DNA of 36,854 nt from Nemertoderma westbladi (GCA_032718475.1 JAUCBJ010005996.1:1-36854), one strand, 5' to 3'; counted from the first letter of the stretch, positions 3,796 through 31,930 are shown. The notes: a model not told the origin generated them from the letters alone. Made by a program: numbers and translations.

Positions 3796-3804
3796 AGTTT
3801 AGTC

Positions 3805-3850
3805 GTCCAAGTGTTGGACTGAGGGGGGTCGGAATCAGGGCGAGACGCCC
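3805..3850 (+). other. Polypurine-tract-like motif after the integrase, between two small hairpins
   Basis: GTCCAA-gtg-TTGGAC (3805-3819), GAGGGGGGTCGGAA (3821-3834), GGGCG-aga-CGCCC (3838-3850). No TGT LTR start follows. Confidence 0.45.
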
Positions 3851-4000
3851 TTCCCAGACAAAATATAAAAAAAATAAAAATTAATAAAATAAAATAATAG
3901 AAAGAAAGTTAGAAAGTTAGAAAGAGAAAGTAATAGTAGATAGCACGTAGTAGTAAGTAAGTAGGCAGATAGAAGTTAGTAAGAGTTAGTAAGAGTAGAG

Positions 4001-4640: not shown

Positions 4641-5139
4641 AAGTGAGAGGGGGGCACGTGAGTACAGCAGGACAGACCGTGTAGGCCGCACGAGACAGAC
4701 TACTGTACTGCACAGCCCGTAGAGTAGGTCAGAATGTTTGATACAGGGCCAGGAGGTTACCTGGTGCAGACTAGCACAGTAAGGAATAGCTAGTCTACCC
4801 TGTATGCAAAGCATAGGGGTTATTTAGACAAAATAATCCATTATAAGTATTGATAGCACAGTAATAGAATTAAAATTATAATTAAATTAAAAATTCAACA
4901 AATTATAGTAACACTAGACAGAAAATTCTAGAACATAATAAAAGTAACTGACAGATTTAGGGAATTTAGGGAAATTTAGCACTTTAGGGGGTAGATAGGC
5001 AAAATATAGTGTAAAAACCTAGTGTTCTGAGAGAGATAGGCCATTATCGGACCGCACAGACCATCCTAACTACATCACTCACCTATTTTGAGCCTTGGTA
5101 AGGCACCACCTTGTAGGTGAGCGATCGGGAGCGTTCGAA

Positions 5140-7746
5140 ATGGCGGAGAGACTTGTCAGAAAGAGAAAGGCGAAAATAGGTGGAAAGGAGATATTAGTGG
5201 ATTTCACTCAGAGGCATCTGGAGGAGAAGACGAGGGGATACTACGAGCGGTTAGAGAAGGGTCACAAGGCGCGAGCGCTGCAGGACCATTTCAGGGAGGT
5301 GCACGAGAGGCGGCTGGTCGGGACCTACGGGACGCCGTCGATAGACAATGCGATCCTCGAGCATTTCCACTACATAGTGAAGGGAGACGAGGCGAAGTTC
5401 AGGATACCGAAGTATCCGAGGGAACCACCGAGAAAGGACTGGAAGAGGTTCGTAGAGTCCGTCAGCAGGGGAGGGTACATGGTCCTAGATGACGAAGGGA
5501 CTGGAAGATGACGAGGGTTCGAGAAGAGGGTTGGCAGGGTCGGCCAGAACCATACTTCTACATTTGGCGCAGCCAAATGTAGGACATATTCCTGTTCGAT
5601 CTGGGAACGTATGGGAAGAAGAGCGGGCCAAAGTTTAACCGGTTGCCAAGGGCGGTGCAGAACCTAGTAAGGGAGAAGTCGACGATGAAGGTGGGATCGG
5701 CGATCCACGACGATGCGGAGAGGATCGTCGGACCGGAAACCCCCAACCTCCTGGACATGCAAACGGTCTACATGGCTGTGACAGGGCCAGCTGGGTTGGG
5801 ATTAGTAGAGAACACAGGACATTGCGGAGCAGTGGCGATGGGCCAGCTGATGGGGCTGATGCCACAAGCCAATGGACTGGGGTAAATTCAGGGAGGAGTA
5901 CGGAGCGGAGTTGGTGAACTCACTGAAGTGGGGAGCGAGGCCAGGGAAACAGGAGGTGTATCAATTCCGGAGAGGAGCGATAAAGATATATCAGAAGCGA
6001 TATATCCTGCAGGAGATTGGATAATGATAGGTTTACTAAACCTATTCATGGCTGTGGTTATCGGAAGAGAACCACGGCGTTTCTGCTGTCAGGATCACCC
6101 CTGAACTACAGAAGAGCCTTCAAAGTGGCCTTCGATGGTCTGGCAGACCACCCGGGGCTGAAGGGCGAGTCGGTATACTATAACTGCCGATATCTAGTAG
6201 ACAGGGAGGTGGATACACCATATCAGAGGTGGGAGAAGCTGGAGGCGGATAGACTAGAGGAGAAGCGATTGGAAGAAATCGCCAGACGAGAAAGGAGGGA
6301 GGCAGACGAAAGAGAGGCGGAAGCTAGAGGAGAGGGCTACGGGTTCGAGGCCCAGGCCTTGGACGAGTTACAGTGGGGATCAGGGAGCTCGGGCGAGTCT
6401 CTGGGGCGGGAGTTGGGATGGACGGAAGGATCGCCGGAACAGTCGTCATTGGGATTGCAAGCGACGCCCATGCCAGCGGGCGCCGAGGGCGATTTCACAA
6501 AGAAAAGACCAAGGGAACTGGAAGGATGGAAAGTTACGGGCGAGAGCCAAGGTGGGACGGGACACAGTGGGTCTGCCGGGATACTGGGTTTGGATCCACT
6601 CCCAGCGGGGGCGAGGATGACGACGAGTTCGGGGAGATGCCGCCCATCGAGAGGATTGGCCACTCAGACAGGGACTGGGTTGGCGGGAGAGTGGTGACGG
6701 CCAGCGGGGCGAGGGCCTTCTGGGATAAACCCGGCAAGCGGGCCTGGGTGCATGAGGAGGCGGCGATGGATTTTGTGGGGAGCACCATCAGGTTGGGCGA
6801 GCAACTGGGAACGGCACCACGGGTAGTGTTCGGAGAGACGATGCCGAGGCGAGACGAGGACATAGACATGGACAGAGACGTTAACGTCCAGAAGTTTGCT
6901 TACCAATGGCCCCATAGACCGAGGAGATCGCTTGGGGCAAAAGACGACTTGGGGCGGGATGCGTTGATACACGGCTGCGATTACTGCGGGAGGCTTACTC
7001 ACCAGGAAAAGAGCTGCTTGTATCGATTCCAGAAGGGGATGTGTTGCCTCTACTGCTGCGAGTCGAGTCACAGGATGGGGGCATGTCCACAGTTGCACAA
7101 CTGCTGCTCTAAGTGTAACTTTCGGGGACACTACGGACGCCAGTGCGACTGGATGGACGACGAGGAGAAGTTTAAGATGTTCGAGGAGTGGGCCGACGTT
7201 GGCGTCATGACGTGGCAGAGAATGAAGGCCCAGGAGTTCCGGTGGGGTTTCTTCAATATTAACCAGGAGGCCCACCTGGAAATCATTAAACGGAGACTTC
7301 CGTTTACTTATCAAGAAGTAGCGACGGCGGCATCGTATGGTGGAGTGATCAATACGCAGAGGTATTTAGATAGATGGGCGCCAGAGAACTGGGGAGAGTT
7401 CAGAGATTTCCTAGCGGAGCATGTGCCGTGGGCCATGAAGGTGATCTTGTGGGACGCTACTAGGGGAAAGCAGCAGGGGCATTCGGAGGGGCCACCTGCG
7501 AAGCGATACCGGGAGCTAATAACACCAGCGCCCAAGGAATCGACCACGGGAATCAGTAAGGAGGTAACGGCAAGGATGAGGAGCCTTAAGGAGGATAAGA
7601 ACAGCCAGGAAGCGACCGAGACAGGACGACAACAGAGGGAAGGACCTGAGATGGTTCCCAAAGACGGGAGGAGCGAACTAGGACTTGGAGGGGGAGATGT
7701 GGGGATGCCTGGAAGGCACCACATGCGAAGTAATACAAACTCCTAA
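5140..7746 (+). pseudogene. BEL-1 accessory gene: DEDDy 3'-5' exonuclease plus three CCHC zinc knuckles (about 870 codons, frameshifted)
   Basis: ExoI GYMVLDDEG (D 5488, E 5494); RTILLHLAQ..IFLFDL; ExoII LPRAVQNLV..KVGSAIHDD; LLDMQ; ExoIII YILQD after removing a 2-bp insertion at 6013. Knuckles CDYCGRLTHQEKSC, CLYCCESSHRMGAC, CSKCNFRGHYGRQC (6976-7146). Confidence 0.8.
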
Positions 7747-8199
7747 GTGCAAATTTAATAAAAGTGCAATTAGTATGTACGTATGTAATGATCAATAGAG
7801 TATAATTAAAATCAATATAATCAAAGTAAGTACTATAGTCATGTAACCTTTTTCCAACTAGCTAGTGGGACTGGGGACCAATCGACTATGACAGGAGGAT
7901 GGGAGACTAGACGTGGCACTACACACTTCACACTTCTTGAGTGCGATGGCACGGAAGGGGAGGGTGAGGCTCGTCAGGAGTGAATGGGGCAAAGTAAGTA
8001 AGGGTTGAGTACAGGAGCGCAGGGGAGATAGTGAGAGGTGGTGTTGATGCGTGTGGAAAGAATACGGGTGCAATTAAAATGTGGGGAGCGAGGAGTAAGA
8101 GGCAGTGTGAGGGACAAAGAGGTCTGAAAGTAGAGTGGAGTTAGAGTGGAGTTAGAGTGGAGCTAGAGGAGTTAGAGTCAGCCTAGAGTAGAGTGGGGA

Positions 8200-8700
8200 T
8201 ACAAAATTGTGTGAGAAGAATCCACAATTGTCTCGAACCGAGACGCCAGATGTCTTGGTGCAACATAGGTTACGGTTGCACCAAGAAGGGGTAGTAATAT
8301 CATACCCAGAGGGAGCGGCCTGGAAAGCCGACTCCAAGAAAAGAACTCCACCCAATAGTAGATCGGGTTCCAGCAGAATTGAAGCGCACTTATAGGTGAT
8401 GCTATCTTCTCACCGGGAAGATAGCATGGGGGGGGAGTGTAAACGGATTCAATTCCGCTTCATTACCCTCATAAAATGGGAAGTGGCACCTTTTCAGCAA
8501 TATGTTGGAGATACGAGATTGGCAATAACCAATCTCGTATCACAACCAACACTGGGGACAACACAACCCCAAAGCCACACAAAGGGAGGTTAGAGGTCAA
8601 TCCACCTCGAAAGGGGAAACAACCAGCAGGGGCCAACAGGGGGGGAAACACTCCCAGAGAGAGTGACAGGCGTGAAGTAGGTTATTGGCCAATAGGGGCG
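8200..8700 (+). other. Hairpin-rich non-coding 3' region of BEL-1 (repeated at +3590 and +7180)
   Basis: Perfect stems of 12 bp (8253-8286), 11 bp (8399-8427) and 13 bp (8510-8541), plus several 4-7 bp stems. Confidence 0.7.
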
Positions 8701-8735
8701 AAGGAGGGCATCCACTGGGTGAAACGCCACAGTAA

Positions 8736-9600
8736 TGTAGCGGTAGAGTAATATCGGTGTGTGATATATATTATCTATTTGCTACCGGCCCATGACTCAG
8801 TTTTACTCAGTTGTCAGTTTCAGTGCAGGCCGGCAATATAGTTTTACCGTCACTGCAGTACTGCCTTATTCTATTATCTATTTACTACCGGTTGTCCGCG
8901 CTTTTAGACCTTTAGCAGTTTAACCTGCCAATTTTAGTTGTCCTCTTGTTTATAAATCGACTTTAGCCTATATCAATTATTTAATGTACTGAAGTTACAT
9001 CAGCCGAAGCCAGTCTGTGCGCTATCATTCACCCACAGTTAAGGGAGACTGGATTCGGATTCCTTGATAGTTATTGCGGTGTAGACCTACTGTATTATTC
9101 GATTGATCGTTACTATATAATCTCTGACAATATATTTACTTTCGGGGAAATATTAACAGTTCCTTTAGGACGTGGCGCTTTAAGTATAAAAACAGAGTTA
9201 TGACTTATACTAATCACAACTAGATGGCCACAGAGTTTCGTAAATAGCGCATTCTTTAGGAGATGCTTTATTATCTTTCACACTACTTCACACGACTTCA
9301 CACTACTTCACACTACTGCGTACTAATCTGCCGACCGTCACTGAATTTGATCATATATAAGGAAGATCGCAACTGACACTTGTAGGGATTATGAAATAGC
9401 ATTTAATTCACACAAAAACCACTATAATTTAAGTCGCAGTTGCTACCGGTAACCTGTTCCTCTTACCTTCAGTAATCAAGAAGATTTGGGGTTTTATGAT
9501 TATTTATCGGTATTCTCCAAATATAACAACATATCCATCAATATAACAACAATTAATAACAGAAGTAAAATAATGCGGTGAACAGTTGGCATGTGTTACT
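8736..9600 (+). mobile_element. Candidate 3' LTR of BEL-1 (end undefined)
   Basis: Starts TGTAGCGGT at a shift from purine-rich to AT-rich sequence and resembles TGTTGCGGT at 33315. No 5' LTR is available for comparison and there is no clean polypurine tract immediately upstream. Confidence 0.3.
9277..9316 (+). repeat. 10-bp tandem repeat (TTCACACTAC) x4
   Basis: Seen directly; present in all three duplication units. Confidence 0.9.
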
Positions 9601-9961
9601 TATGCAGTTATGAAAGTCAGTAAAGACCGTAATATGATATGATGTGATCGGTAGGTGCCGTGATAATAGATTTACGTTCTTGTAATCAAAACCATCTGAT
9701 GTTTAGGCCAAAGTCTGAAACTTCCACACAGAAGTACAGAAGAATTCCAAGCCGGTTCTGAGGCTCAGAAAAAGGTAAACAAAGATAAGATTACGCATTG
9801 CGCGGGTTTCCATAGGCTTCTGTCAGACATAAAGTGAAAATCGCTCTGATTGGCTGAGCAGAACAAAGAAGTTCCACGTCCACAAAGAATCAGCTGTTAG
9901 ATTTTGTCATCTGGGCTCTGATTCCTCCCTTTCACATAGTTGGATAAATTTTAGAGTATTC

Positions 9962-10059
9962 TGCGAATTGCGGGAAAAATGAGTTGTTATGTCCGCAAAA
10001 GCCCCTACACTGCGCATTGCGGGAAAAATGACTTGTTATGTCCGCAAAAGCTTTTACAC
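9962..10059. repeat. 49-bp direct repeat x2, each with an internal inverted repeat TTGCGG...CCGCAA
   Basis: ATTGCGGGAAAAATGA.TTGTTATGTCCGCAAAAGC at 9967 and 10016. Confidence 0.9.
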
Positions 10060-10880
10060 CAGTCATAATGTCTGTTGCTATCATTACTTTATACTATATA
10101 ATATTACATCGACGAAGGAACATCAGACTAAAACCCTTTTTTACACAACCACCCATCAGCCTGTCGTGATGCGTAAGAATTTAACCCGGTCGGGATCCCT
10201 TGATCCCGTCACAGCGTACAACAGTAAGAACCCGCTCCTGATCACGCTTGTTTAACAGTAAGACACATTGTATTTTTGCTGTTGCCTTGCAACAGTGATA
10301 AGCATTTTGTTCAATTATCGCAGAAATACAGTAATTCATTAGGCTATTAGGGAAATTGTAAAATTAGTAAGTTTTTGAAAATTTTAGCTAGGTTTGTGAG
10401 AATTCAGTTTCGGCCAAAATTATTTATAATAAAATTTAGAGTTTTGTACCGTTATGTTAGGTAACCGCTTAGTTATTTTATACCATCTGGAGATACATGG
10501 CGAGACGGAGCTTCTGAGCTTGGGGTTTGTCTGGGCCCGCGGGTTCGGTTTGCAATCAGTGACGAGACTGAAACCTTGGACGCGGACGTGGAATCTCACA
10601 GCAAACATGGTTAGTTGTTCTGTTAGTACCATTGTATTTGTGGAAGCTGTAAAAAATTACCGGTTGTTTAACTGCGAAGCTGAACTCAATTTATTAGTTA
10701 GGATAGTTAGGTTTAGCCGGCCAGGGTGTTTTGGATCGCTCAGTTGGAGAGAGAGAGAGTGTCGCAACCTGAAGGTGTAGCCACGCGCTAGTGGAATATA
10801 TATAATATTTAAAAATAAAATTACGTTGATTTTGAGCTATATATAGTTAGAAATATTTGGGTGACAAAATCATTTTGCAA

Positions 10881-11224
10881 TGTAATTACAGACCTGTTAG
10901 TATCCTAAGTATTGTATCTAAAATTCTCTAGAACGTTCTGTTTTTCTACAGCTGGAGGCACATCTTAGTAGGCTAAATCTGATCTATGAACTTCAGTCCG
11001 GTTTTCGTAAATCATATTCTACAGACACCTGCCTTATTAACTTAACTGATACAATTAGATGTAATAACGCAAAGGGTTTATATACTGGTATGGTAATGTT
11101 GGACCTACAAAAGGCTTTCGATACAGTAGATCACGAAATTCTGCTTGGTAAGTTAGGCCTGATGGGTGTAGGTTCTATAGACTGGTTCAAGTCCTACCTG
11201 TCAGACAGAGGTCAAACTGTAGTC
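10881..11224 (+). mobile_element. CR1/L2-group LINE RT fragment (duplication copy 1)
   Basis: [30 protein letters not shown]; cut by the duplication junction. Confidence 0.92.
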
Positions 11225-14200
11225 GAGGGAAGGACCTGAGATGGTTCCCAAAGACGGGAGGAGCGAACTAGGACTTGGAGGGGGAGATGTGGGGATGCCT
11301 GGAAGGCACCACATGCGAAGTAATACAAACTCCTAAGTGCAAATTTAATAAAAGTGCAATTAGTATGTACGTATGTAATGATCAATAGAGTATAATTAAA
11401 ATCAATATAATCAAAGTAAGTACTATAGTCATGTAACCTTTTTCCAACTAGCTAGTGGGACTGGGGACCAATCGACTATGACAGGAGGATGGGAGACTAG
11501 ACGTGGCACTACACACTTCACACTTCTTGAGTGCGATGGCACGGAAGGGGAGGGTGAGGCTCGTCAGGAGTGAATGGGGCAAAGTAAGTAAGGGTTGAGT
11601 ACAGGAGCGCAGGGGAGATAGTGAGAGGTGGTGTTGATGCGTGTGGAAAGAATACGGGTGCAATTAAAATGTGGGGAGCGAGGAGTAAGAGGCAGTGTGA
11701 GGGACAAAGAGGTCTGAAAGTAGAGTGGAGTTAGAGTGGAGTTAGAGTGGAGCTAGAGGAGTTAGAGTCAGCCTAGAGTAGAGTGGGGATACAAAATTGT
11801 GTGAGAAGAATCCACAATTGTCTCGAACCGAGACGCCAGATGTCTTGGTGCAACATAGGTTACGGTTGCACCAAGAAGGGGTAGTAATATCATACCCAGA
11901 GGGAGCGGCCTGGAAAGCCGACTCCAAGAAAAGAACTCCACCCAATAGTAGATCGGGTTCCAGCAGAATTGAAGCGCACTTATAGGTGATGCTATCTTCT
12001 CACCGGGAAGATAGCATGGGGGGGGAGTGTAAACGGATTCAATTCCGCTTCATTACCCTCATAAAATGGGAAGTGGCACCTTTTCAGCAATATGTTGGAG
12101 ATACGAGATTGGCAATAACCAATCTCGTATCACAACCAACACTGGGGACAACACAACCCCAAAGCCACACAAAGGGAGGTTAGAGGTCAATCCACCTCGA
12201 AAGGGGAAACAACCAGCAGGGGCCAACAGGGGGGGAAACACTCCCAGAGAGAGTGACAGGCGTGAAGTAGGTTATTGGCCAATAGGGGCGAAGGAGGGCA
12301 TCCACTGGGTGAAACGCCACAGTAATGTAGCGGTAGAGTAATATCGGTGTGTGATATATATTATCTATTTGCTACCGGCCCATGACTCAGTTTTACTCAG
12401 TTGTCAGTTTCAGTGCAGGCCGGCAATATAGTTTTACCGTCACTGCAGTACTGCCTTATTCTATTATCTATTTACTACCGGTTGTCCGCGCTTTTAGACC
12501 TTTAGCAGTTTAACCTGCCAATTTTAGTTGTCCTCTTGTTTATAAATCGACTTTAGCCTATATCAATTATTTAATGTACTGAAGTTACATCAGCCGAAGC
12601 CAGTCTGTGCGCTATCATTCACCCACAGTTAAGGGAGACTGGATTCGGATTCCTTGATAGTTATTGCGGTGTAGACCTACTGTATTATTCGATTGATCGT
12701 TACTATATAATCTCTGACAATATATTTACTTTCGGGGAAATATTAACAGTTCCTTTAGGACGTGGCGCTTTAAGTATAAAAACAGAGTTATGACTTATAC
12801 TAATCACAACTAGATGGCCACAGAGTTTCGTAAATAGCGCATTCTTTAGGAGATGCTTTATTATCTTTCACACTACTTCACACGACTTCACACTACTTCA
12901 CACTACTGCGTACTAATCTGCCGACCGTCACTGAATTTGATCATATATAAGGAAGATCGCAACTGACACTTGTAGGGATTATGAAATAGCATTTAATTCA
13001 CACAAAAACCACTATAATTTAAGTCGCAGTTGCTACCGGTAACCTGTTCCTCTTACCTTCAGTAATCAAGAAGATTTGGGGTTTTATGATTATTTATCGG
13101 TATTCTCCAAATATAACAACATATCCATCAATATAACAACAATTAATAACAGAAGTAAAATAATGCGGTGAACAGTTGGCATGTGTTACTTATGCAGTTA
13201 TGAAAGTCAGTAAAGACCGTAATATGATATGATGTGATCGGTAGGTGCCGTGATAATAGATTTACGTTCTTGTAATCAAAACCATCTGATGTTTAGGCCA
13301 AAGTCTGAAACTTCCACACAGAAGTACAGAAGAATTCCAAGCCGGTTCTGAGGCTCAGAAAAAGGTAAACAAAGATAAGATTACGCATTGCGCGGGTTTC
13401 CATAGGCTTCTGTCAGACATAAAGTGAAAATCGCTCTGATTGGCTGAGCAGAACAAAGAAGTTCCACGTCCACAAAGAATCAGCTGTTAGATTTTGTCAT
13501 CTGGGCTCTGATTCCTCCCTTTCACATAGTTGGATAAATTTTAGAGTATTCTGCGAATTGCGGGAAAAATGAGTTGTTATGTCCGCAAAAGCCCCTACAC
13601 TGCGCATTGCGGGAAAAATGACTTGTTATGTCCGCAAAAGCTTTTACACCAGTCATAATGTCTGTTGCTATCATTACTTTATACTATATAATATTACATC
13701 GACGAAGGAACATCAGACTAAAACCCTTTTTTACACAACCACCCATCAGCCTGTCGTGATGCGTAAGAATTTAACCCGGTCGGGATCCCTTGATCCCGTC
13801 ACAGCGTACAACAGTAAGAACCCGCTCCTGATCACGCTTGTTTAACAGTAAGACACATTGTATTTTTGCTGTTGCCTTGCAACAGTGATAAGCATTTTGT
13901 TCAATTATCGCAGAAATACAGTAATTCATTAGGCTATTAGGGAAATTGTAAAATTAGTAAGTTTTTGAAAATTTTAGCTAGGTTTGTGAGAATTCAGTTT
14001 CGGCCAAAATTATTTATAATAAAATTTAGAGTTTTGTACCGTTATGTTAGGTAACCGCTTAGTTATTTTATACCATCTGGAGATACATGGCGAGACGGAG
14101 CTTCTGAGCTTGGGGTTTGTCTGGGCCCGCGGGTTCGGTTTGCAATCAGTGACGAGACTGAAACCTTGGACGCGGACGTGGAATCTCACAGCAAACATGG

Positions 14201-14470
14201 TTAGTTGTTCTGTTAGTACCATTGTATTTGTGGAAGCTGTAAAAAATTACCGGTTGTTTAACTGCGAAGCTGAACTCAATTTATTAGTTAGGATAGTTAG
14301 GTTTAGCCGGCCAGGGTGTTTTGGATCGCTCAGTTGGAGAGAGAGAGAGTGTCGCAACCTGAAGGTGTAGCCACGCGCTAGTGGAATATATATAATATTT
14401 AAAAATAAAATTACGTTGATTTTGAGCTATATATAGTTAGAAATATTTGGGTGACAAAATCATTTTGCAA

Positions 14471-14814
14471 TGTAATTACAGACCTGTTAGTATCCTAAGT
14501 ATTGTATCTAAAATTCTCTAGAACGTTCTGTTTTTCTACAGCTGGAGGCACATCTTAGTAGGCTAAATCTGATCTATGAACTTCAGTCCGGTTTTCGTAA
14601 ATCATATTCTACAGACACCTGCCTTATTAACTTAACTGATACAATTAGATGTAATAACGCAAAGGGTTTATATACTGGTATGGTAATGTTGGACCTACAA
14701 AAGGCTTTCGATACAGTAGATCACGAAATTCTGCTTGGTAAGTTAGGCCTGATGGGTGTAGGTTCTATAGACTGGTTCAAGTCCTACCTGTCAGACAGAG
14801 GTCAAACTGTAGTC
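14471..14814 (+). mobile_element. CR1/L2-group LINE RT fragment (duplication copy 2)
   Basis: Same sequence as 10881-11224. Confidence 0.92.
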
Positions 14815-17351: not shown

Positions 17352-17701
17352 TGTCGTGATGCGTAAGAATTTAACCCGGTCGGGATCCCTTGATCCCGTC
17401 ACAGCGTACAACAGTAAGAACCCGCTCCTGATCACGCTTGTTTAACAGTAAGACACATTGTATTTTTGCTGTTGCCTTGCAACAGTGATAAGCATTTTGT
17501 TCAATTATCGCAGAAATACAGTAATTCATTAGGCTATTAGGGAAATTGTAAAATTAGTAAGTTTTTGAAAATTTTAGCTAGGTTTGTGAGAATTCAGTTT
17601 CGGCCAAAATTATTTATAATAAAATTTAGAGTTTTGTACCGTTATGTTAGGTAACCGCTTAGTTATTTTATACCATCTGGAGATACATGGCGAGACGGAG
17701 C
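17352..17701 (+). mobile_element. Candidate 5' LTR and primer-binding site of BEL-2
   Basis: AATAAA at 17618, then ...GATACA|TGGCGAGACGGAGC at 17687/17688, the CA-TGG pattern of an LTR/PBS junction. The start at TGTCGTG (17352) is a guess. Also present at 10498 and 14088. Confidence 0.45.
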
Positions 17702-18070
17702 TTCTGAGCTTGGGGTTTGTCTGGGCCCGCGGGTTCGGTTTGCAATCAGTGACGAGACTGAAACCTTGGACGCGGACGTGGAATCTCACAGCAAACATGG
17801 TTAGTTGTTCTGTTAGTACCATTGTATTTGTGGAAGCTGTAAAAAATTACCGGTTGTTTAACTGCGAAGCTGAACTCAATTTATTAGTTAGGATAGTTAG
17901 GTTTAGCCGGCCAGGGTGTTTTGGATCGCTCAGTTGGAGAGAGAGAGAGTGTCGCAACCTGAAGGTGTAGCCACGCGCTAGTGGAATATATATAATATTT
18001 AAAAATAAAATTACGTTGATTTTGAGCTATATATAGTTAGAAATATTTGGGTGACAAAATCATTTTGCAA

Positions 18071-19419: not shown

Positions 19420-19750
19420 TTTATTAATTATTTACTATTTATACTGTAATTATGTTTTATATTAAATTGTTCTGTACATTACATCTTTATCGTTGAGTCG
19501 GACATTGTCACGCTCTCGGTAAAGTTGTACATGTACATAGTGTAATTAGGTTTATATTGGTTTTAGGTTAGCGTAGTGTAATATTGTATTTGTAACCAAG
19601 TAACATAAAGGACCCCCTTGGAAATAAGCTGCAAAGCTTTAGGGGTAATCCTATATGTTATGTTGGACAATACCTTTATACCGGTACATTGTTTGGTGTA
19701 TTTGTTATTGTTTTTACATAATGTATAAATAAATCTATCTATCTATCTAT
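18071..19750 (+). mobile_element. 5'-truncated CR1/L2-group (Crack/Daphne-like) non-LTR retrotransposon with 3' UTR and tail
   Basis: RT coding region, 3' UTR stem-loop GGACCCC..AAGCT-gcaa-AGCTT..GGGGTAATCC (19610-19651), AATAAA at 19728 and (ATCT)n tail to 19750. No clear target-site duplication. Confidence 0.92.
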
Positions 19751-20042
19751 TTTGAATTATTTTGAATTAGATTCAGAAAACATTTTCGTGTCATACCGGT
19801 ATTTAAATGCTGTATAATAGCTATAGAGCCACATATTTGTTTAAATATTATACCGGTAATTACTATAACTATATATTTAAATTCACAATATTATATTGTG
19901 AATTTATTTTCGTATTTGTGACATTTGAGACCAAATAAATTATTGACAAATAATTTAATCGAATTTTCGATTAAATTAATATATATCTCAAATTTTTGCG
20001 AGATTTTAGCTGGAAGGCAAATAATTATATATACTTTAAACA

Positions 20043-23000
20043 ATGAGTGTCTCAGAGAAGGAGGCACTAGAGGACAGTTATGAGACGGCGGCCGGACCGC
20101 CGACTGATAACAGTATTGACATAACTGTTGATGACAATGCCGACTATGACGATGCAGCGAGTGACACTGACGTAAGTGAACAGGAGGACGAGACAGTAAC
20201 TAGTGAGGAAGAGCAAGGTGAGTTAATATTATTAGGATCCCCTACCGCTACTGTAAGGAAGGATTGTACAGCAGCCCGGCCAGAGGTGAGTGATAGGGAA
20301 GGTAGCCTAGTAGGAGCGAGAGCCCGGAGCCCGGTTTCCAGACCTGTGGGTATGGTAAGTGCCGTGGCCCCAGCGGCTGTAAGGAGTACCCGTAGTTCCT
20401 GTAACAATCCCTCAAGTCCACCGAGTATGAGTCAGGTAAGCGAGAGAGAACTAGACATCGCAATAAAAAAGAAACATCGCGCGCATGCCGCACATATAAC
20501 CCGGACAATGGACAAAGTAAGGAAGATGCTAGCCGACTCTGGTAATATCGGAAGGGAAGGGTTAGTAGAACTTAGAAGGGGATATAACTCAGCGTTGTTT
20601 AAGCAGACTGAGGAGCTTGCAGTCCTAGCGAAGAGAGCAGTGGAGTCCCAGTTGAGCGATGTAGCGACGAAGGTTTATGACAGGGTTCTGGCGGCCTTGT
20701 TGGAGCACCGCGCATTATCGGAGCAATTCCGATGAGTTAGAACAGAGAACTGGTTGCTATGGGCGTCGCAAACACAGGCGACTCAGGTACGTGCACAGTT
20801 ACGGTCTTACGTGCACAGGAGGCCAGGAAGGAAGCCAAACGAGAAAGGGAGCACAACCGGAAGTTAGACGCAAAGCTGCGCGAGTTGGAGGACATAAGTA
20901 AGCGTGAGCAAGCCGAACACGAATAGGAAGAATGCGAACTCCAACTTGAGCGCGAATGCAAACAGAAGGAACGTGAACTCCAACTTGAATGCAAACAGAA
21001 AGAACACGAACTCCAACTTGAACGCGAGTGGAAGGAACGCGAACTCCAACTCGAACGCGAGCGGGAAGCGAAAGAATGCGAACACAGAAGAAACGCGAAT
21101 TTCAACTCGAATGCGAGCGCAAGGAACGCGAACTCGAGATCGAGAAAGAGTGACGCACGTTATACGAAGAAAATGCGCGACTGGAAGAAGAAAGCGCAGC
21201 GAGACTCGCAAGGGAAGCAGAACAACGCAAGATGGCGCAATTGGAGAGTGCGAGACTAAACTTAGAAAGCGAAGAACGAACAAGAAAGGCGAACGAAATT
21301 GCTGAGAAGGGGATGCGAATGATCGAAGAATGTGGGGCGAGTGTAGGTACCGAGTTGCGAGACCTGTTTGCACAGCAGAAGGCCGAACAGGAGGCGATAA
21401 CTTCGGTTATACGTGAGTCAACGGCGATCAGAATTCCTATACCCGGTCCAACTATTACAAGTACTCGGATTGCTAAACCATTTTCTACATATCGCACTCC
21501 AGTTGGGATTAGTGCTTCACCGATCGCGCAGGATCTGCGCCATCAGGAGGGCGCGCTGATGCACAATTATTATCGCAACGAAGAGGAGTTTATAGAAGAA
21601 ACTCCTAGAGGACGAGTATTGGGCGAACCAAACCCGCGGGTTTGGAATACGCGGATGGATCGCCGACCCAGTGCGACGGAGAACTTCCGGGTTAAACCGG
21701 AAGAGGGATCATATGAGAGACAGCGGATTACCCAAATAGAGCCAACGGCCCAGCGGAACCCTAGCCAGGAGTTTATTACGGGGGAGGAGTTAAGCGCCAG
21801 TCTAGCGCAAGCTATATCGCCGCACATCCAACCTATAATGGACATGCTTAGTAACATACAGTTAAAGGAAGCAGCTCAGTTAAGAAGTAATTCTAATCCT
21901 AGCAGGCCAGAACTAGACAGAGTCCAACCTGGCCAACGAGTACGCATATCGGAGGCAACAATACCGCAAAGACCTCAGGTAAGAACGCCCGTCCCTACGA
22001 TCCACAATCCCGATTTCGAACACTCGGCGGAAAGATTTATACAGGAAGCTTGGGTTAGGGCCTCGGCACATAACCCGCCGCGAGCACCGAGAACCGACAC
22101 AGACTCGAGTAATGAAGAGAATGAATTGAGGCGTAAGAAGTCCCAAAACCGGAAGGAAAGATGGACCGACGCGGAGCAGGTAAGTATGAATCCCCAGGAT
22201 AGGACCAGACTTAATAACCCTGCAGAACTAAACAACTTGTTAACCCGGAATGACGCCACCCTTAGAGACATAGGTAAGTTTGCTTCTAGGCAGGGATTGC
22301 CGATGCAACAACCCCAGAAGTTTATGGGCAACCATAAACATTGGAGGACGTTTAAAACCTATGTCGACGAACAACTGACCAACAGCACTTTTACTCCCAA
22401 CGAGAAATTCAACTATCTACTACAGATGCTCCATCGAGAACCGAGAGCCATTGCTGATAACTTCGTCGGCAATGAAAGAGCATTTGAACTAGCTATGAAG
22501 ACACTTAGCGACATCTATGGGAATAAAACCAAGATGGCACAGTCGATAGTAGATGACTTAGGTAAGGGCGGAACGATTATGACTCCGTTGGAGATGTTGA
22601 ACTTAGCGAACGCCATCTCAAACGCATTAGATATCTTAAGGACGGTAATTCTGCCTCATCATGGTGATCACGCAGAAGTTTTAAAGAGCATAATAAGACG
22701 TTTAAACATGCATTACCGACAGAAATGGCAAAAACTAGAAAATTAATTAGAGGGTCAAGACAAAGTGTTGACACTTCAACACATCCATGACATGATAGCC
22801 ACCGATGCGGTAGCAGAGATGAAATCAAATTTCTCAGAGGATAATATGAGGGAGTCTAAACCTGTTACCGGTAAGTCAATGGTAGCAGAGATGAAATCAA
22901 ATATCTCAGAGAAGAATATGAGGGAGTCTAAACCTGTTACCGGTAAGTCAATGGTAAGTTTTGATGATGACAGAACCACTGTGACTTTTAACTCAGTAGA

Positions 23001-23340
23001 CAAATACAATCCGAGTATCCCTGCCTTTAGACCAGACTTGCGAGTATGGTCAGATGAGAGGTCAGATCGACCTAAGGTGAAGCAACATGAGTTGCCGGAC
23101 GGATTTGTAGGTTGCCAATTCTGCCTACTAAAAGAGGTAAGATCAGACGACCATAAGTTAGACAGTTGCAGATGGTTCAAACAGTTAACTTCGGAACAGA
23201 GAAGAGTTCAAGTGTGGACGTTGGACACCTGTTGGGCATGTCTTGCTCCAGGTCACGTACGGTGCCAGTGGCCAAACAGTAAGGACGGATGCATGGAATG
23301 CGGCAGACTACACCACAAGTTGCTACATGCGGACTTCCAT
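20043..23340 (+). pseudogene. gag: BEL-2 gag: acidic N-terminus, E/R coiled coil, DUF1759-like capsid region, three Cys-His motifs
   Basis: PQKFMGN..W.TF, EKFNYL.QML, L...YG; CQFC..H....C, CWACLAPGH, CMECGRLHHKLLH. Frameshifts and stops near 20733, 20900-21230 and 22744. Confidence 0.9.
22809..22952 (+). repeat. 72-bp in-frame tandem duplication in gag
   Basis: VAEMKSN.SE.NMRESKPVTGKSM occurs twice. Confidence 0.95.
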
Positions 23341-23559
23341 ACCCCAACGGACCGTTATCTACAGATGAATCCTCAAAGGAAGGGGATCAGAGACCCTATA
23401 ACGATAAGGAAGAATACATACACCGGCATCCAAGACGACGGGTATCATCCAAGTTCGTCGGACGAGGACGGTGAAGCGAGCGCGAGGGAGGTGACCTGCC
23501 AGGGATTCACCACTGATAGTTTATTGACCAGCGCGAGTACGTATCTATCATCGGCCACG

Positions 23560-26500
23560 TCAGAGATATTCAGCGTGATACCGGTGAAACTTACTGGAGA
23601 CAGGGGTCGAAGAGAATATATGTGATGTTGGACACTGCGTCCACATTATCGTATATAGACGAGGAAGTAGCGAGAGCCGTTTCCAGCTTCCGGGACGCCG
23701 AGGAAATCAAAATAGAGTTAAAATCCATGCATGGGGTAGGAGACATTAAGGGACATATGATTTCTGTAGAACTAGACTCCCTACTCCCGAGAGAAGAGCA
23801 CACTCGCCAAGAGCAGAGAGCGTTGCGAGGGTTCGGCAGGCAGTTATGTAAGGTGCCGCCGATGAGTCCCATAGCACAGGAGTATTTTGACAAGCTCAGG
23901 ATACTGAGACACCAGGTAGGTTATAGGAATGTGTCTATGTTGATTGGAGCGGAACAGCTGATTGCACACCAAATATGGGAAACATGACCAGCTGAGTCGT
24001 ATGTAAATGGGCCACACGCCCATAGGACTATATTAGGTTGGTATACACGAGTACCCATGTCCTATGAGTTTTCAGGTGGCGATAAGCCAAAGGATAGACA
24101 CGACGAATTACAACATATAACACAACCACTGTTAGTAGAACCACCAGACGTAGACGAGTTTAGGAGAACCTGTATTGATATTGACCACTATAGCGACTTT
24201 AGCGAGTCGGACGAGGACTTGATTCCCGATAACATTAGATTGTCGGAACCACTCTACAACGACCGGACAGATAGTGAACCCGAGGACTACTGTTATCAGA
24301 CCCGTGGGTCTGGTTCATTGGCCCACGCCACTTATTTTAGTAATGTTTTGACTTATACCAATATAGCGGAGGGTCAGGTGGCGAAATATCGAGACCTCAA
24401 CATTTTCCAATTCAGTGAAGAGGAATTACAAAAGGAATTGATATGCCAGGACCTCGAAACAGGAGACAGAACCATCGAATAGCTGGATAGGGACGCGATG
24501 GAACCCAGTGGTTATGATTTAACCATGTCCACCGACGAGAAACGGTTGCTAGAGATGATGGAAGAAACCATATGTCTGCTACCCACAGGACATTTTGAAG
24601 TTGGAATGTTGTGGCGTCGACAACCCCCTAAGTTGGAGAACAATTAAAACTTGGCCCTGAAAAGATTGAACGGAGTAAGGGCTCGGTTGCCAGGATAGTC
24701 TCCAATTTCTCTGGTACGAGAATGAAGACCTATCCGGCCCAGTGGTTACGTACCAGATGTATGTCAGGATATTCGGCGCCCGCGATAGTCCCAACGGCAC
24801 GCTGTTTGTTTTAAAGAAAATGGCGACAGCCCAGGTTGGTAAGTATCCAGTAGATGTAATCGAGTCCATCATAAGGAACTTCTACATGGACGACGGATTG
24901 GTGTCCAAGGACACAGCGGAACAAGCCATAGAAGTGGCTCACGGCCTACAGGAGTGCTTGGCTACGGGAGGATTCCCATTGTCCAAGTTCACCACCAATT
25001 CGGAGGCCTTATTAGAATCGTTCCCGGTGAAGGATCGCAGGAGTGGAGACATTGAACTGAGTGTAGAACCCATCCCCATGGCGCGAGTACTGGGACTTGG
25101 TTGGAATCCAAACACGGATAAATTCCAGGTGAGAGTTAGATTTGAACCCAGTAGCCCAGACAAGACTTTGACTAAGAGAATCTGCTTATCGACTGTATGA
25201 GGAAAATTTGGCTGTCCGACTTTGAGTGGGACGAGCCAATATCCCCTATACATGCAAAGCAGTGGAGAGAGTGGGAAGCCGAGTTGCATCTATTGAAAAA
25301 TATAGATGTACCCCGCTCCTACTTTCCGAATCAGCCGGTATTTCCAGCTGATCTACAGCTGCATTTGTTTAGTGACGCAAGTGACACCGGCTTTGGTATG
25401 GTAGCCTACCTTCGCCGGGAGGTAAGTCAGGATAAGTTTGAGATGGCCTTTGTGACTTCTAGATGCCGGTCAAATACATGACTGTCCCTCGTGCAGAGTT
25501 GCAGGCAGCGGTAGTATTGGTCGAGGTAAGTAAGCAGATAATAGAGGAGTTAGATACGACCTTGACATTATTCTATTGGACGGACGCATCCTTAGTGTTA
25601 GTGTATATTGCAGCTGACAATATTGCACTAAAGACATTTGTAGCAAACAGACATGCTCAGATCGTCGACTTTTCGACGAAGGAACAATGGAGACATTGTC
25701 CGGGAGTGTTAAACCCGGCTGACATAACTTCGAGAGGTGCTATGCCAGCGGAATTCTGTCAAGAAGAATCCCAGGAGTTTTGGTTACATGGGCCTGAGTT
25801 TCTAACGAGAACACAGGAACATTGGCCAGAGCGACTGAAGATCGTTACCAATCCGATGCCGATAGATGCAGAGGGCAAAGTGGAGAAAGTTTCCAAGTCT
25901 AAGTCGAAAGCCAAACTCGAGTCAATGGAGCGGCCTGAAGAGTCATTGGAGCGGCCTGAAGAGTCAATGGAGCGGCCTGAAGAGTCATTGGAGTGGCCTG
26001 AAGAGTCATTGGAGTGGCCCGGAGACCTGTCAGACCAAGAGACTTATGTGACTACAAGATCAGGAAGGGTACGTTTTGACATAAAACCACCCTTACAGAC
26101 TACACAAGGGTCACAATTAGTAAGTGACGGACAGAAAATGACCAACAAAATGGAGCCTTCGGTTTCCAAACCTGCGGGTTTGGATTCGAAACTTCCATTG
26201 GCTACTGGGCAACCGTCGCTGGCATTAGAGCCACGTAGTATTTATGAGAAATTGCTAAATTCGTCCGCCTCTTGGCTGACAATTTGTAAAAGAACCGCGT
26301 GGTTAAGCCGATATGTTTCGTTCCTTTGTTTAAAACATTCGAAGCACTTAGGAGAACAAACAAGCACTAATATTGAGTGAATTCAGAAATTGAAACAACC
26401 TCTGACAGAGGATGAGATTGATCAAGCGGAATTAAAACATTTGAAGCATTATCAAATGTGTGCCTTCCCAAACGAATTCTATCTATTATCGGCTCAACGA

Positions 26501-27878
26501 CCAGTTCTCTATAAACCCCTTAGAAAATGGAGTCCATTAATCCATAAAGGTTTGATTTGTCATAGATCGAGAATCCAGACTGTTGACATAAACTCACAGT
26601 TTAGGTTCCCAGTGATAATCGCTAGTCACCCAATAGAATTGCAAAGAGCGATTCTATGGGATATACATAAGAGGCTGCATCACTCGGGATGGTTACACTG
26701 TTTGTCGGCAGCGATTCATTCTGTTGCAGCCAAGCAGGGCGGTAGGTACCATGTATGACACCTGTCTGGTTTGCAAGAGAGTGAACGCCAGAGTATTGGA
26801 ACAGGAGATGGCTGAACTCCCAGAAGTGAGAGTGCAGGCATATGACCCACCCTTTACAAATACAGGGGTGGACTGTTTTGGCCCGATTGAGGCAAAGAGT
26901 GGATGGCTGACCCACAAGAGATGGGGCCTGCTACTGATATGTATGGCTAGTAGAGCCGTACACATAGAGCGTGTGGCAGACATGTCGACCAAATCTCTGC
27001 TCCTGGCCTTAAAGAGATTTACGGCCAGGAGAGGACTAGTAAAGGCATTCTTCTCCGACAAGGGCACAAACTTTGTCGGAGGGAATAGCGAGTTAAATGT
27101 GGCTCATAGGGCGGCGCAGAACAGAGAAATCTCTGCAGCACTTTTACCGCAAAGAGTGGAGTGGAAATTTAATACCCCAGAAAGTCCCTGGAGAGGAGGA
27201 AGTTGGGAGCGTTTGGTTTGCTCCATAAAACAGGCCATAGCGAAAACATTGCCTGTAAATAAGCAACTGACAGACGACGAGTTGGTAACAGCTTTCATCG
27301 AAATCGAGCATACCTTAAACTCGAGGCCGATAGCTATGTTACCAGACGGCGTCGCATTAATGCCAAATCATTTGCTAATGCAGAGTCCAGCATTTCTTGT
27401 GCCGGCATCAGAACCCATTAGTGCCGACCTATACAGTCGAAAAAGCTGGATAATAACACAGTTTATAGTGTACACATTCTGGGAATATTAGCGGGAATAA
27501 TATCTTCCCACAATATCCACCGGAGCAAAGTGGTACAAAACAGTTCGAAGCCTCCAAAGAGGAGACTACGTATTAATAACCGAACTAGTCGTCAAGAGAA
27601 AATATTGGGAGACCGGAGTCATCTTGCACGTACACCCGGACGTACAAAATATAGTACGCACCGTCACTGTAAAAATAAGGTGCAAGTGTCCGAACAAGAA
27701 GAAGTGTAAAACTAAGGGTTTGCACACCTTGGACAGGCCGGTCCAGGATATTGTGTTACTAGAGAAAACACGCATCGAGACAGGAGATCTCTTCTGCCTC
27801 AAAACAAAATTAGTGTCAGAACGCAAATTCACTTCGTATGCAAATACTCGGAAATGCATAGGAGCGGGTTTGTGGTGA
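23560..27878 (+). pseudogene. pol: BEL-2 pol (protease, RT, RNase H, integrase) with deletions, stops and frameshifts
   Basis: MLDTASTLSYI; FGARDSP, NFYMDD, RVLGLGWN, LHLFSDAS, PRAELQAA, YWTDAS, NPADITSRG; HKRLHHSG..CLVC, TGVDCFGP, FSDKGTNFVG, GGSWERLV, LNSRP. Confidence 0.95.
25919..26019 (+). repeat. 21-bp in-frame repeat (about 5 copies) in the RNase H-integrase linker
   Basis: GAGTCAWTGGAGYGGCCTGAA encoding ES(M/L)E(R/W)PE. Confidence 0.95.
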
Positions 27879-28554
27879 TTTGCGTTGAGAATTTGTCTGG
27901 TGGGTATCAAAACAAAATTAAATTTTTTCATAAAATGTTTAGAAAATTAAAAATTTTAAAAATTAGAAGTGAACCTAAGACAATTCCAAACGCTGCTTAT
28001 AGACGCGTTCTAGAACCTGTCTATAAGTGTACAGTAATTTGAAAGTCGTGAGAGCCTGGAAAATAGTATCTAGACACCATGGTTACGGCTATATTATGTA
28101 GGAGTGTAAATTGAGTTCAGTAACTTCCACAGATTAGTGCCCACAGTACAACAACCAAGATGCTAAAGGTTAGTAGCACCAGAGGCATACACAGACCCCA
28201 CTCAGTAGTTTGCAGTGGAGTGAGGTGTTCGATTATCAAACCTTGGGTTTGGTATAGTCGAACACCATAGCTATTGTCCTTTCTAACTACTGTAGTCTAG
28301 TACAAGTATTGGGGAGTAGTTTGGGCATCAAAAAGTGAGTCGGTCACGGCCAGTTTATCTCCGAAGTTTTTGCGCTATGCATGGGAATAGGTTTGAAGGT
28401 AGTTAAGAATGAGAAAGCCAAACCTGAACTGCTGGAAGGCAGGCCGGGTAGCTCGGGAAGTCCACCCCTCCGCACTATCTAACTGACTTACCCACAGTGT
28501 AATTAGCTTACGTAACAGACTATTGGAATATATATAGATACGCGGCAATAAGTA

Positions 28555-31500
28555 ATGGCGAAGGAAATCCGAGCACAACTGAGGAGAGGATTTACCGCCA
28601 GGGAGGAAGCGGAGTTACCATTCGCCCGACATGGCTGCAAAGACTCTAACGTCTATTATCACGGGAGATCTGTGATGGAATTAAACGGGAAATACAAGCC
28701 CATGTACGACAAGGAGCTGAGGAGAGAAAGGATGTGAGCGTTGGGGGATCGCATGGAAGTATTACGAAAGGAATACCGGACTCGTTATCCCTACGATTTC
28801 GCCCTTGATGTGTGCGACATTAGCGCTGACCCGGATGAGGAAATCGCTCATTTGTGTCATATGAATATGTATTTGTTGCACGATGAACCTCTACTTGCAG
28901 TCCGAGATCAATTCGACGGGATGCATCTTTACCGGAGGACCCGAGGCGAGGACGAGGAGACGCCAAAGGTTTTCAGCGTATAAAAGTTGTTCTACAAATG
29001 CGGTAAATGCATGAATAAACAAGACGTAGCAATCCCCGACTGACTGAACGAGCAGAATCCCGAACCGATATTAATGCGGTGTCAAGGTCATCAGTTTCTT
29101 AGATATAACGGGGGAGGTTACCCGATGAGCAATCCGATGATCAGCATCGACTTTAGCGGAAAGAGACCTCCGAGACCTATTCTGCCGACCGTTACGACTT
29201 TGGACCCGTATACGGAGATTAAATCCTGTTCAACACCCGCTTTGATAGAAACGGCGGCAGCCATTTTGCTTTTCCGACCCTATAAGGACCTAGAGGTGCG
29301 GCGCAAAGCGGCACGGGACTCGATTACCAAACCCTCGGGTTTGGAACTCTCGAGTCCATGGACCACGTTCACTTCGCCCCACTGGGAGTGGATGCTAACG
29401 CCTGAGCATCAGGACGATATAGACATGTTGCGGCAGGAGGAGCGAGCGGCGAAAGCGAAGCAGTTATTCGAAGAGCGTATAGCGGAGTATAATAAGACTA
29501 CGGATAGACATCAGGAAGAAACGAGGAGAGTCACTGGATTTGTTCCACAGGCTGTATCTCAACCTAGACCGGTGTATTATTCCAGCAGCAATGAACCTGC
29601 GATATTGGTAGATCACCCAGAATCGCGAGAAGCTATTCGAGTTCCTTCGCGATGTCCCGATGCAGATTACCGACTATGATACGTTGGACAAGATCGGAGC
29701 TCCAGTGAAGGAGAGCAAGTTATTTGGTTGGTTGGACAAGTATATAAAGGTATGGGTCGCGGTGGCTACGTTCCTGGATGACAAGGAGGTAGACCAGGCA
29801 TGGCTAAGGAGGAAGGGTTCCTACACTCAGTATGACGACCACAAGGCTATCGAGTGCATGTGGACCCCATCCGACAAAATCCGGCATCAGTGGCGAAGAA
29901 CGGAGGAATCCCTGGAGGATTGGCGTGTGATGTTTTATGATAACGAGGGAGGGTCTCACCAAGAATGCTTAACTAGCAAATGCATTCAAATTCGCGCGGC
30001 TGGCTGACGGTGTAACTCACGTATTTATGCGCATGAGGGTGGACAGAGAAAGACCGGAGCCCATTATAACGACGTAATACCGGCGAGGGAAGGATCCTAG
30101 AGAATAGATCTTGGAGGTATATAGGAGAGGGGGTATGCATGGAGCGGAGCGTATCGACGCCAGGATGTTACCCAAGAAGGTTAGGGAGGCAATCCTTAAC
30201 CAGGATTATGTTAAGGTGGGATCGAGAGTCCAAAGTGCTTTAGAGAGCAACTTCAACGCTATGACGGATCTGGAGGATCGATTGCCTAGACCGTTTGTCG
30301 ACACCGAGCTATTATTGCTATGGGCGCAGGACATTGGAATTTACAGGGAGTACCCTAATTCTGCTAAGACTGGTATGGGCTTTATAGCACATTTGTTGTA
30401 TAATTGGGACTTCAAGTTAAAGACGCAAAAGAAATACGAGGAGGCGTACGGTGAATATAACACGCTGCCGGGAGCGGAGTTCAAATCCTACTTTAAGCGG
30501 CAAGCGCTAGTGTATTGGAACATCTGTGCACCACCCCGTGCGTCGCTGCAATATTATTTGGTGCTAGAGTCGAATACAGTAACTTGTTTAGTCACGGATA
30601 TCGTCGCGCGAGTTCTGAAGCGTCATCCATTGGTGTCGGAGGAGAACAATACATTCGCTCGAAAGGAGGAATCCAATCCGACGTGATGAAGCGTTTCTTA
30701 ACCCCATTCTTCAACAAATCACTAGACAACACGTCGATGGTTAGGAGAGGATTAGCGATATTCGAAGGAGTATACCAATAGAACATCAGAGATTTGAGAG
30801 ATCGACCTTCGATGGAGTATCCGACACCAGAGGCCGTGGAGAAGTGGTTCGGGAACCAAACCCGCGGGTTTTGTACTCCTGTCCACTTGGAGGCAGACAG
30901 ACCCGTTAGAGAGGGTTGGCTCGAGACGTTAGTGGAAGTGTTCGAAATTGATCTTCCGGTGGAGATGACATATCCTAAATGGACGCGGGAGGAAATATTG
31001 GAGATCGAGGACAAAGGCAAGCACGTTTACTTTGTTCCGGAACGGCAACCTTTGACCGGAGAGGAAGACATTGTTTTAGACATTGGGAAGGAAGGGAGTG
31101 TGAAGCCGATTGGAGACCTCATATACGAGAGGGCTTGAATTCCACCAGCGCATAGATGCAAGTTGTGCGGCAGCACAAGACATAGTCAAAAGTCTTGTGA
31201 TGCTGTGGTAGAGGCTGCGCATAAGGTTTGCCGTTGGTGCAACGAGACTGACCACTCGTTTTATACATGTACTGTCTTCATTTCCCAGTGTGGATATTGT
31301 GGTGTAAAAGGACACCGTAGCGCAAAGTGCCAGCTGTGTGATGATTCCTTCCAGAACCATAGCGCTAACCTCCTTCGGGAGATGTTGGACAAATGGGAGA
31401 GTGTGGCAGACTACCACATTCAGGCACAAATGCGGTGGTTACCGTTTAAAGCAGGATACAGGTTCTGGGCAGTGGATCCATCACATGTTGCCTATGAGCC

Positions 31501-31930
31501 ATATCTACAATCCCTACCGCAATATCAGGAGTTGATGTTAACCGCTCAGGACCTTCCGCAGAATACAGGAGTTGTGGTTATTAGATCGTATTTCCGGCAG
31601 CTTAACATGGACAATAAGTACACCTGGAATTTCGTCGCTATCTGCGACAGGATAACCAGGGGTGTATTTTCGGAGACGAGGAAAGTGGTGCGTGCGCGAG
31701 GCGACTGGAGGATGGCAGCCATCCAATACCACAACGAATTCTTGCTGACTCACGTTCAGTTGGGGTTATTGACCACAGAACGGGTGGAGGAGCAACGGAC
31801 TGCAGCGCCCACAGCGACAACAGCCGGAGCTCATAGCTCGCGGCAAGTACCAGAAGGAGGAGTCCTTGGCAAGCGTCAAGCTAAGGACGAGCAGTATCAT
31901 GGTATACCTAAAGAGGTGAGGTCTCTATAG
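28555..31930 (+). pseudogene. BEL-2 accessory gene: N-terminal extension, DEDDy-like exonuclease, three CCHC zinc knuckles (about 1120 codons, broken)
   Basis: ExoI VMFYDNEG (D 29939, E 29945); LPKKVREAILNQDYVKVGS; PFVDTE; KTGMGFIA; QYYLVLE. Knuckles CKLCGSTRHSQKSC, CRWCNETDHSFYTC, CGYCGVKGHRSAKC (31157-31330). ORF pieces are collinear on the plus strand. Confidence 0.78.

Follow-up and report, generated by a model that had tools for sequence, protein, structure and literature searches.

Introduction

BEL/Pao retrotransposons are usually described as gag-pol elements with an occasional env. For the Belpaoviridae, the ICTV profile gives gag, pol and env only (PMC8742986), and the env-bearing members include Tas, Cer7/Cer13 and Atlas (PMC8742986; PMC9094657, partial text). 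Like the elements reported here, these are BEL/Pao elements with an extra gene after the integrase. Their extra gene, however, encodes a viral fusion glycoprotein, whereas the third gene described below (ORF3) appears from its sequence and model to encode a soluble, nuclease-like protein.

A third gene other than env has been reported in the bdelloid rotifer LTR elements Juno and Vesta and in Athena/Terminon, where ORF3 encodes a DEDDy 3'-5' exonuclease (Rodriguez et al., 2017, PMC5408684; reviewed in PMC6431247, PMC5718144 and PMC6338049; all partial texts). Both the rotifer gene and the one described here lie downstream of pol, are of the DEDDy type and lack a transmembrane segment, and in both the activity is predicted. 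However, the rotifer ORF3 belongs to another retrotransposon group, and BEL/Pao was not named in the available text of PMC5408684. By the description in that text, the rotifer ORF3 is set apart by the motif DEED and by the lack of any described triple CCHC module. The same text reported no deviation from neutral evolution inside the genome, whereas the BEL family displayed between-family purifying selection and co-phylogeny with pol.

Among cellular proteins, RNase D of Trypanosoma brucei (TbRND, PDB 7c45) has the same order, DEDDy nuclease and then CCHC knuckles, and both of its domains were matched by the family profile. Its zinc-finger domain (CCHC) drives RNA binding and cleavage, and the enzyme trims small RNAs (PMC7797062, partial text). 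However, TbRND is a cellular mitochondrial enzyme with four knuckles adjoining the nuclease, whereas ORF3 contains another conserved domain and a linker that is long and disordered; the nuclease match was weak (i-Evalue 17), an architectural analogy rather than orthology. EXD2, WRN, Nibbler (Mut-7) and Egalitarian, the best profile and fold matches, share Exo I DxE, Exo II D and Exo III YxxxD with ORF3, but they are cellular single-copy genes without a knuckle module, with 13–19% identity to ORF3. Readthrough of the pol stop into a third ORF, proposed below for one clade, is known from the plant Copia element SIRE1, whose env-like ORF is expressed by stop codon suppression (PMC3414828, partial text). 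The SIRE1 ORF is transmembrane, and in the present family the readthrough is predicted only and absent from the window copies.

An RNase D-like domain may already have been noted in a nematode BEL element. The available parts of PMC3118150, PMC554778, PMC2996953, PMC9094657, PMC535339, PMC11662393, PMC5029228 and PMC7998251 contained no mention of a nuclease ORF in BEL elements, and a DEDDy ORF3 was not described for BEL/Pao in the literature searched, whose coverage stopped short of Malik et al. (2000), Frame et al. (2001), Repbase and GyDB. The DEDDy ORF3 of LTR retrotransposons is already published (PMC5408684); its occurrence in BEL/Pao, with knuckles, would be the new part.

Organization of the two BEL/Pao elements

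The analyzed stretch, referred to as the window, comprised 36,854 nucleotides from Nemertoderma westbladi (GCA_032718475.1 JAUCBJ010005996.1:1-36854), and all features given here lie on the + strand. BEL-1 contained a pol remnant at 889..3795 (RT fragment, RNase H/Peptidase_A17, integrase and DUF5641), and its 5' half was outside the window. A non-coding spacer (3796..5139) with a 41-bp tandem array at ~3945–4634 separated its pol from ORF3. BEL-2 contained a broken gag-pol at 20040..27878, with DUF1759, RT, Peptidase_A17, integrase and DUF5641. The assignment of both elements to BEL/Pao in the earlier note held: Peptidase_A17 and DUF5641 were present in both, Integrase_H2C2 in BEL-1 and DUF1759 in the BEL-2 gag, and Pfam results from the window and the relatives together gave a Pao-type pol, the order PR-RT-RH-IN and a DUF1759 gag. 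The two pol proteins shared only ~27–47% identity per HSP, or roughly one third of their residues. ORF3 started 1345 bp past the pol stop in BEL-1 (3795 to 5140) and 677 bp past it in BEL-2 (27878 to 28555), which agreed with the distance of 0.7–1.3 kb after the integrase given earlier.

No LTR pair was detected for BEL-1 or BEL-2 within the window, even with relaxed blastn settings, and the 5' LTR of BEL-2 was not found there. A candidate polypurine tract of BEL-1 (8428-8437), followed by a candidate 3' LTR from TGT at 8438, occupied 8428..9378 by sequence; the end at 9378 is a guess, with no 5' LTR in the window to compare. This candidate LTR region recurred three times, along with a 3590-bp unit.

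Every bin of both elements, including the ORF3 regions, was covered by contigs of three DNA runs. These contigs numbered in the thousands and were of mixed identity, so both window ORF3s are repeated sequence and not single-copy genes. No contig joining pol and ORF3 was among the matches listed from the three runs, and depth was not taken as a measure of copy number.

Decay of the ORF3 copies in the window

The earlier note had described a long ORF in each element, which was not borne out. The BEL-1 region (5140..7746) consisted of pieces at 5092-5511, 5583-5885, 5860-6018, 5984-6697 and 6328-7746 in three frames, and the main stop-free pieces of the BEL-2 region (28555..31930) were 29044-29679, 29612-30007, 30108-30686, 30782-31138 and 31139-31930. 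Stops and frame changes thus broke each copy up, leaving at least five pieces spread across three frames, and both are therefore pseudogenes. The motifs quoted in the note were all present on the + strand and collinear, with one correction, since 'RYILQD' reads RYILQE in frame.

The exonuclease remnant of BEL-1 lay at 5482..6015 (putative Exo I 5482-5499, Exo II 5688-5714, Exo III region 5998-6015) and that of BEL-2 at 29930..30614 (putative Exo I 29930-29950, Exo II region 30213-30239, Exo III 30552-30569). BEL-2 had Ala in Exo II at the position of the relatives' Asp, and neither window copy held a complete catalytic set in an intact frame. Three CX2CX4HX4C knuckles were found in each copy, with six residues between the second and third as previously observed. 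In BEL-1 the triple knuckle (6964..7326) comprised 6976-7017, 7045-7086 and 7105-7146 and was followed by a conserved FExxADxGxxT...WGF domain from 7180; in BEL-2 (31142..31540) it comprised 31157-31198, 31229-31270 and 31289-31330 and was likewise followed by a conserved domain.

The two ORF3 regions displayed no nucleotide similarity (best match E 0.07), as the note had stated. At the protein level, tblastx between the BEL-1 and BEL-2 regions matched the knuckles (E 8e-8) and gave weak collinear HSPs at VLDDEG/FYDNEG and LPRAV/LPKKV. Pfam assigned no family at its cut-off to any of the 10 window ORF3 fragments. In shuffle tests, fragments 5583-5882, 5860-6018 and 30108-30683 outscored 300 of 300 shuffles. 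The putative Exo I fragments did align with the profile's Exo I region, but alone they were equalled by 14 and 42 of 300 shuffles and were not significant. A match of a BEL-2 fragment to rotavirus VP4/VP8* (PDB sequence match, E 1.8e-4) was discarded as chance, because those residues lie within the exonuclease profile match (E 2e-20).

ORF3 family and its nuclease domain

A phmmer search of 1.84 billion representatives with the BEL-1 knuckle piece retrieved 58 proteins. Word-index protein searches returned no relatives, or only the query P0051. Many of the 58 had an N-terminal domain, and only two came near Pfam DNA_pol_A_exo1 (best score 23.3 against a cut-off of 23.6 bits); ORF3 mostly fell below that cut-off. 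An exonuclease profile of this N-terminal domain was built from 15 relatives and no window sequences; P0002, P0019 and P0028, which were generic repeat or knuckle proteins, were excluded from the profiles. It matched BEL-2 at 30150-30614 with E 2e-20, and this is independent evidence because the family was found via the BEL-1 knuckles. In BEL-1 it matched 5586-5774 (E 9e-4, and 2e-7 after iteration). The knuckle profile matched BEL-2 with E 5e-16 and BEL-1 with E 2e-27, the latter partly circular, as that piece was the search query. With the relatives' profiles matching both copies, and with the shuffle tests, the two window proteins belong to one family, as had been proposed. Both regions are very probably remnants of a BEL accessory gene of DEDDy-knuckle type.

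The DnaQ-like fold suggested earlier was recovered by two routes. A profile of 19 relatives searched against the PDB gave EXD2 (E 1.4e-10), then WRN and Egalitarian, and also trypanosome RNase D. In the AlphaFold model of the intact relative P0051 (pLDDT 75.9) the nuclease was folded, the linker disordered and the knuckle domain predicted with confidence; with Foldseek this model matched EXD2 (E 2.6e-7), then RRP6, Nibbler and WRN, and against viral models it returned DEDD nucleases. The model of a 192-aa window fragment had no Foldseek match at E ≤0.001 (best 0.26), and its top rows were DEDD nucleases. The N-terminal domain of ORF3 is thus predicted to be a DEDDy 3'-5' exonuclease of the EXD2/WRN type.

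We aligned 68 domains, of which 61 were scored complete; two without Exo I were dropped, leaving 59, three of them the same protein. The family had the Exo I DxE, Exo II D and Exo III YxxxD pattern, and 36 of the 61 rows had the Exo III Tyr. All four catalytic acids were kept in 33 of the 59 complete domains, and one or more were lacking in the other 26. In one starred pol clade the Exo I and Exo II acids were gone and the ORF was retained (dN/dS 0.21–0.44 in seven pairs). Knuckles without a detectable nuclease occurred at L047 and L059, both pol-linked, and at L061. Judging by these sequences, part of the family can do without catalysis. Since the knuckles were kept where the nuclease was dead or lost, RNA binding looks like the core function of ORF3; the loci were picked by the knuckle motif, however, so that knuckle retention is built in and nuclease-only forms escape detection.

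Genomic context and evolution of ORF3

A degenerate knuckle-motif pattern alone, run over 26 of the 64 parts of a metagenome collection, gave 120 loci, 80 of them with flanks, and most of these loci came from a few related assembly series. At 34 loci the contig extended at least 4.5 kb upstream; a same-strand BEL integrase lay there in 30 of them, and in 31 with better queries, so that the linkage of homologues to BEL pol was upheld. The three exceptions were L005, whose contig begins just ahead of a very long ORF3, L012, a decayed locus with the motif but without pol, and L071, which was rejected as a chance motif match without a knuckle profile match. Peptidase_A17 was found by Pfam in all five long gag-pol ORFs scanned. 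Intact members had a gag-pol of 2000–2400 aa followed by an ORF3 of 680–1590 aa, the latter intact in 40 loci. Where the ends were assembled, ORF3 lay between direct repeats, as the note would have it: L013 carried the same 103-bp LTR end on both flanks, with a primer-site-like sequence after the 5' copy, and L023 carried 797-bp direct repeats of 95% identity, with knuckles present and the nuclease not detected. Six of the 80 loci were circular contigs. An env reading of ORF3 was rejected, as a hydrophobic window above KD19 2.0 was found in only one of the 40 long ORF3s and the fold matches were nucleases.

In the comparison of the integrase tree (36 rows) with the knuckle tree, 17 of the 20 starred integrase splits recurred, with a Mantel rho of 0.85 (0 of 2000 permutations). 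Nuclease-domain dN/dS was 0.08–0.50 in 16 of 21 pairs, the other five being saturated; dS was high and the pairs were not independent. ORF3 evolved faster than the integrase. Both window elements were on long unresolved branches, and the tree held no ORF3-less BEL outgroup; a viral contig collection yielded neither the knuckle motif nor BEL integrase relatives, and so supplied none. The congruent trees and the dN/dS values below 1 supported the earlier view of an old, selected module of a BEL/Pao lineage. Judged from these sequences, ORF3 is a selected, vertically inherited accessory gene with a DEDDy-plus-CCHC architecture.

Predicted stop-codon readthrough in the dead-nuclease clade

The stop context of pol was compared in 39 integrase-linked loci, which include close kin that are not independent, and L039 with a pol stop that was mis-assigned in this comparison and since corrected. 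The pol frame stayed open for at least 150 codons past the stop in 11 of 15 loci with TGA-C stops vs. 1 of 24 others. A stem with unpaired UCGG at +18/19 past the pol stop was found in 12 of the 16 members of the dead-nuclease clade and in none of the 23 others. In the 6 of these 12 members whose sequences could be aligned gap-free, 10 of 14 pairs changed on both sides, which 0 of 500 shuffles equalled; the structure was derived from the same sequences that were used in this covariation test. The leaky UGA-C context, the open downstream frame and the conserved 3' structure occurred together in the relatives only. This combination of UGA pol stop, open frame and covarying hairpin suggests programmed pol-ORF3 readthrough in the dead-nuclease clade. 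A conserved Met was present just ahead of the folded domain of ORF3, from which separate initiation may occur. The window copies had long non-coding gaps after pol in place of the readthrough signal. A TCGG hairpin-like match 33 nt past the BEL-1 pol stop was not claimed, as the background was 23 of 589 windows.

Function of ORF3

Our tentative preference is that ORF3, as a third BEL/Pao gene with a predicted exonuclease and three knuckles, shields the element's RNA from host small-RNA silencing. Like the CCHC domain of trypanosome RNase D, the knuckle module would hold single-stranded RNA, and it would pass RNA 3' ends on to the nuclease, by which silencing RNAs would be trimmed or destroyed; in members that have lost catalysis, sequestration by binding alone would suffice. 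Silencing suppressors can act through binding alone. Because of this, the faster evolution of ORF3 than of the integrase and the repeated recruitment of nucleases by retroelements, counter-silencing was slightly favored over handling of the element's own RNA. RNA is probably the substrate of ORF3. The knuckles persist in the seven dead-nuclease pairs and at the three loci where the nuclease is absent. A little over half of that expectation goes to host silencing RNA as the target rather than to the element's own RNA. EXD2, WRN and NrnC relatives act on DNA too, and this counts against counter-silencing, as do the weak Foldseek result of the window fragment and the probable readthrough in the dead clade, which points to a role in the particle and not in the cytoplasm.

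The element's own RNA might instead be what ORF3 handles, either by binding a structured signal for export, localisation or packaging or by trimming the 3' end of the genomic RNA or the primer in the particle. We regard this as possible, though somewhat doubtful. The profile and fold searches matched RNase D as well as Egalitarian, which is an RNA adaptor with a DEDD fold, an entire clade has retained its dead nuclease under purifying selection, and the readthrough proposed for that clade (UGA stop, open frame and hairpin) would yield a packaged Gag-Pol-ORF3 fusion. However, ORF3 is separate, hundreds of bases past pol, in most of the catalytically intact members and in both window copies, and the binding site in the element's RNA is hypothetical. 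Processing of element RNA 3' ends has been suggested for the rotifer DEDDy ORF3s by Rodriguez et al. (PMC5408684, partial text), but BEL elements without ORF3 replicate (PMC8742986), and thus the function is not essential.

The earlier note had offered an anti-silencing nuclease or proofreading and trimming for RT as possible roles, and the former is the one tentatively preferred here. It appears improbable that ORF3 is a DNA exonuclease that proofreads or trims ends for reverse transcription or integration, since dispensable catalysis argues against RT proofreading: at least one catalytic acid is missing from 26 of the 59 complete domains and some ORF3s persist without the domain, although the four acids remain in 33 and the DEDDy fold is common to WRN and polymerase proofreading domains. 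ORF3 is also usually a separate ORF, and triple CCHC knuckles typically bind RNA. That ORF3 is a neutral host-derived passenger, or that the two window copies are unrelated captures, is largely refuted and very improbable, as the same two-domain family occurs at the same position across pols that are 25–75% identical, with congruent trees, dN/dS well below 1 and the 40 intact ORFs. What speaks for it is the decay of the window copies, without nucleotide similarity and on long unresolved branches, the carrier tree without an ORF3-less BEL outgroup for judging monophyly, and the motif without pol at L012.

Significance

A conserved third gene without a Pfam model, co-inherited with pol across very divergent families, represents a hidden accessory function, and genome annotations probably list such ORFs as 'hypothetical proteins' of the host. 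The recruitment of DEDDy nucleases by rotifer LTR elements, Athena elements and BEL/Pao suggests that they bring a general advantage. Active, dead and nuclease-less variants occur naturally in the family and can be compared, and the family also provides a handle on the question whether animal retrotransposons have genes that counter piRNA/siRNA silencing. The full picture, which we consider rather unlikely in its entirety, would be an undescribed old BEL/Pao lineage with its own silencing suppressor, in one clade of which a dead RNA binder is made as a Gag-Pol-ORF3 readthrough fusion via a bulged hairpin. If true, neither a counter-defence gene nor a pol-to-ORF3 recoding signal would have been reported before for Belpaoviridae.

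Flanking Regions of the BEL Elements

BEL-1, one of the two broken BEL/Pao elements, was cut off on its 5′ side by a 380-bp tandem repeat (window 2–861). A stem with unpaired TCGGA was located 33 nt past the BEL-1 pol stop (3828–3855); it resembled a hairpin found in relatives, at a level of likeness no higher than background. A 41-bp tandem array (3945–4634) separated pol from ORF3, the accessory gene comprising a DEDDy exonuclease domain and a triple CCHC knuckle. A 3590-bp unit containing the 3′ end of BEL-1, a candidate LTR and a LINE fragment was repeated three times at 7635–18414, with 99.7–99.9% identity. Either the unit was amplified in tandem recently, or the threefold repeat is an artefact of assembly.

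Upstream of BEL-2, the other broken element, the 3′ tail of a 5′-truncated LINE (18112–19750; RVT_1, E 1e-31) stopped just before gag, the expected place of the 5′ LTR. Contigs from three DNA sequencing runs skipped 31900–33141 and joined across it; therefore, this stretch is missing from other copies of the BEL-2 family, which extended to about 34400 in the window. Two short MITE-like stretches with G-rich and C-rich inverted ends were found at 34343–34490 and 35252–35583.

ORF3 Variants and the Pol–ORF3 Junction

Among metagenomic relatives, ORF3 of L047, L059, and L061 (800–1060 aa) retained the knuckle domain, and the nuclease domain was not detectable. In protein P0001, the knuckle module was duplicated and the nuclease domain degenerate. 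The element at L022:5187–10931 carried an internal deletion and is possibly non-autonomous; between its direct repeats lay remnants of gag and integrase together with an ORF3.

In the dead-nuclease clade, whose ORF3 lost the Exo I and II acids yet remains open, a UGA ended pol, and a covarying stem bearing a conserved unpaired UCGG(A) lay ~8 nt past it (L007:1234–1296, L065:6736–6798, L037:6645–6707, L068:5645–5707, and relatives). In these loci, the pol frame stayed open beyond the UGA into ORF3. For this clade, the UGA and stem make up a candidate signal for readthrough or a candidate site for protein binding.
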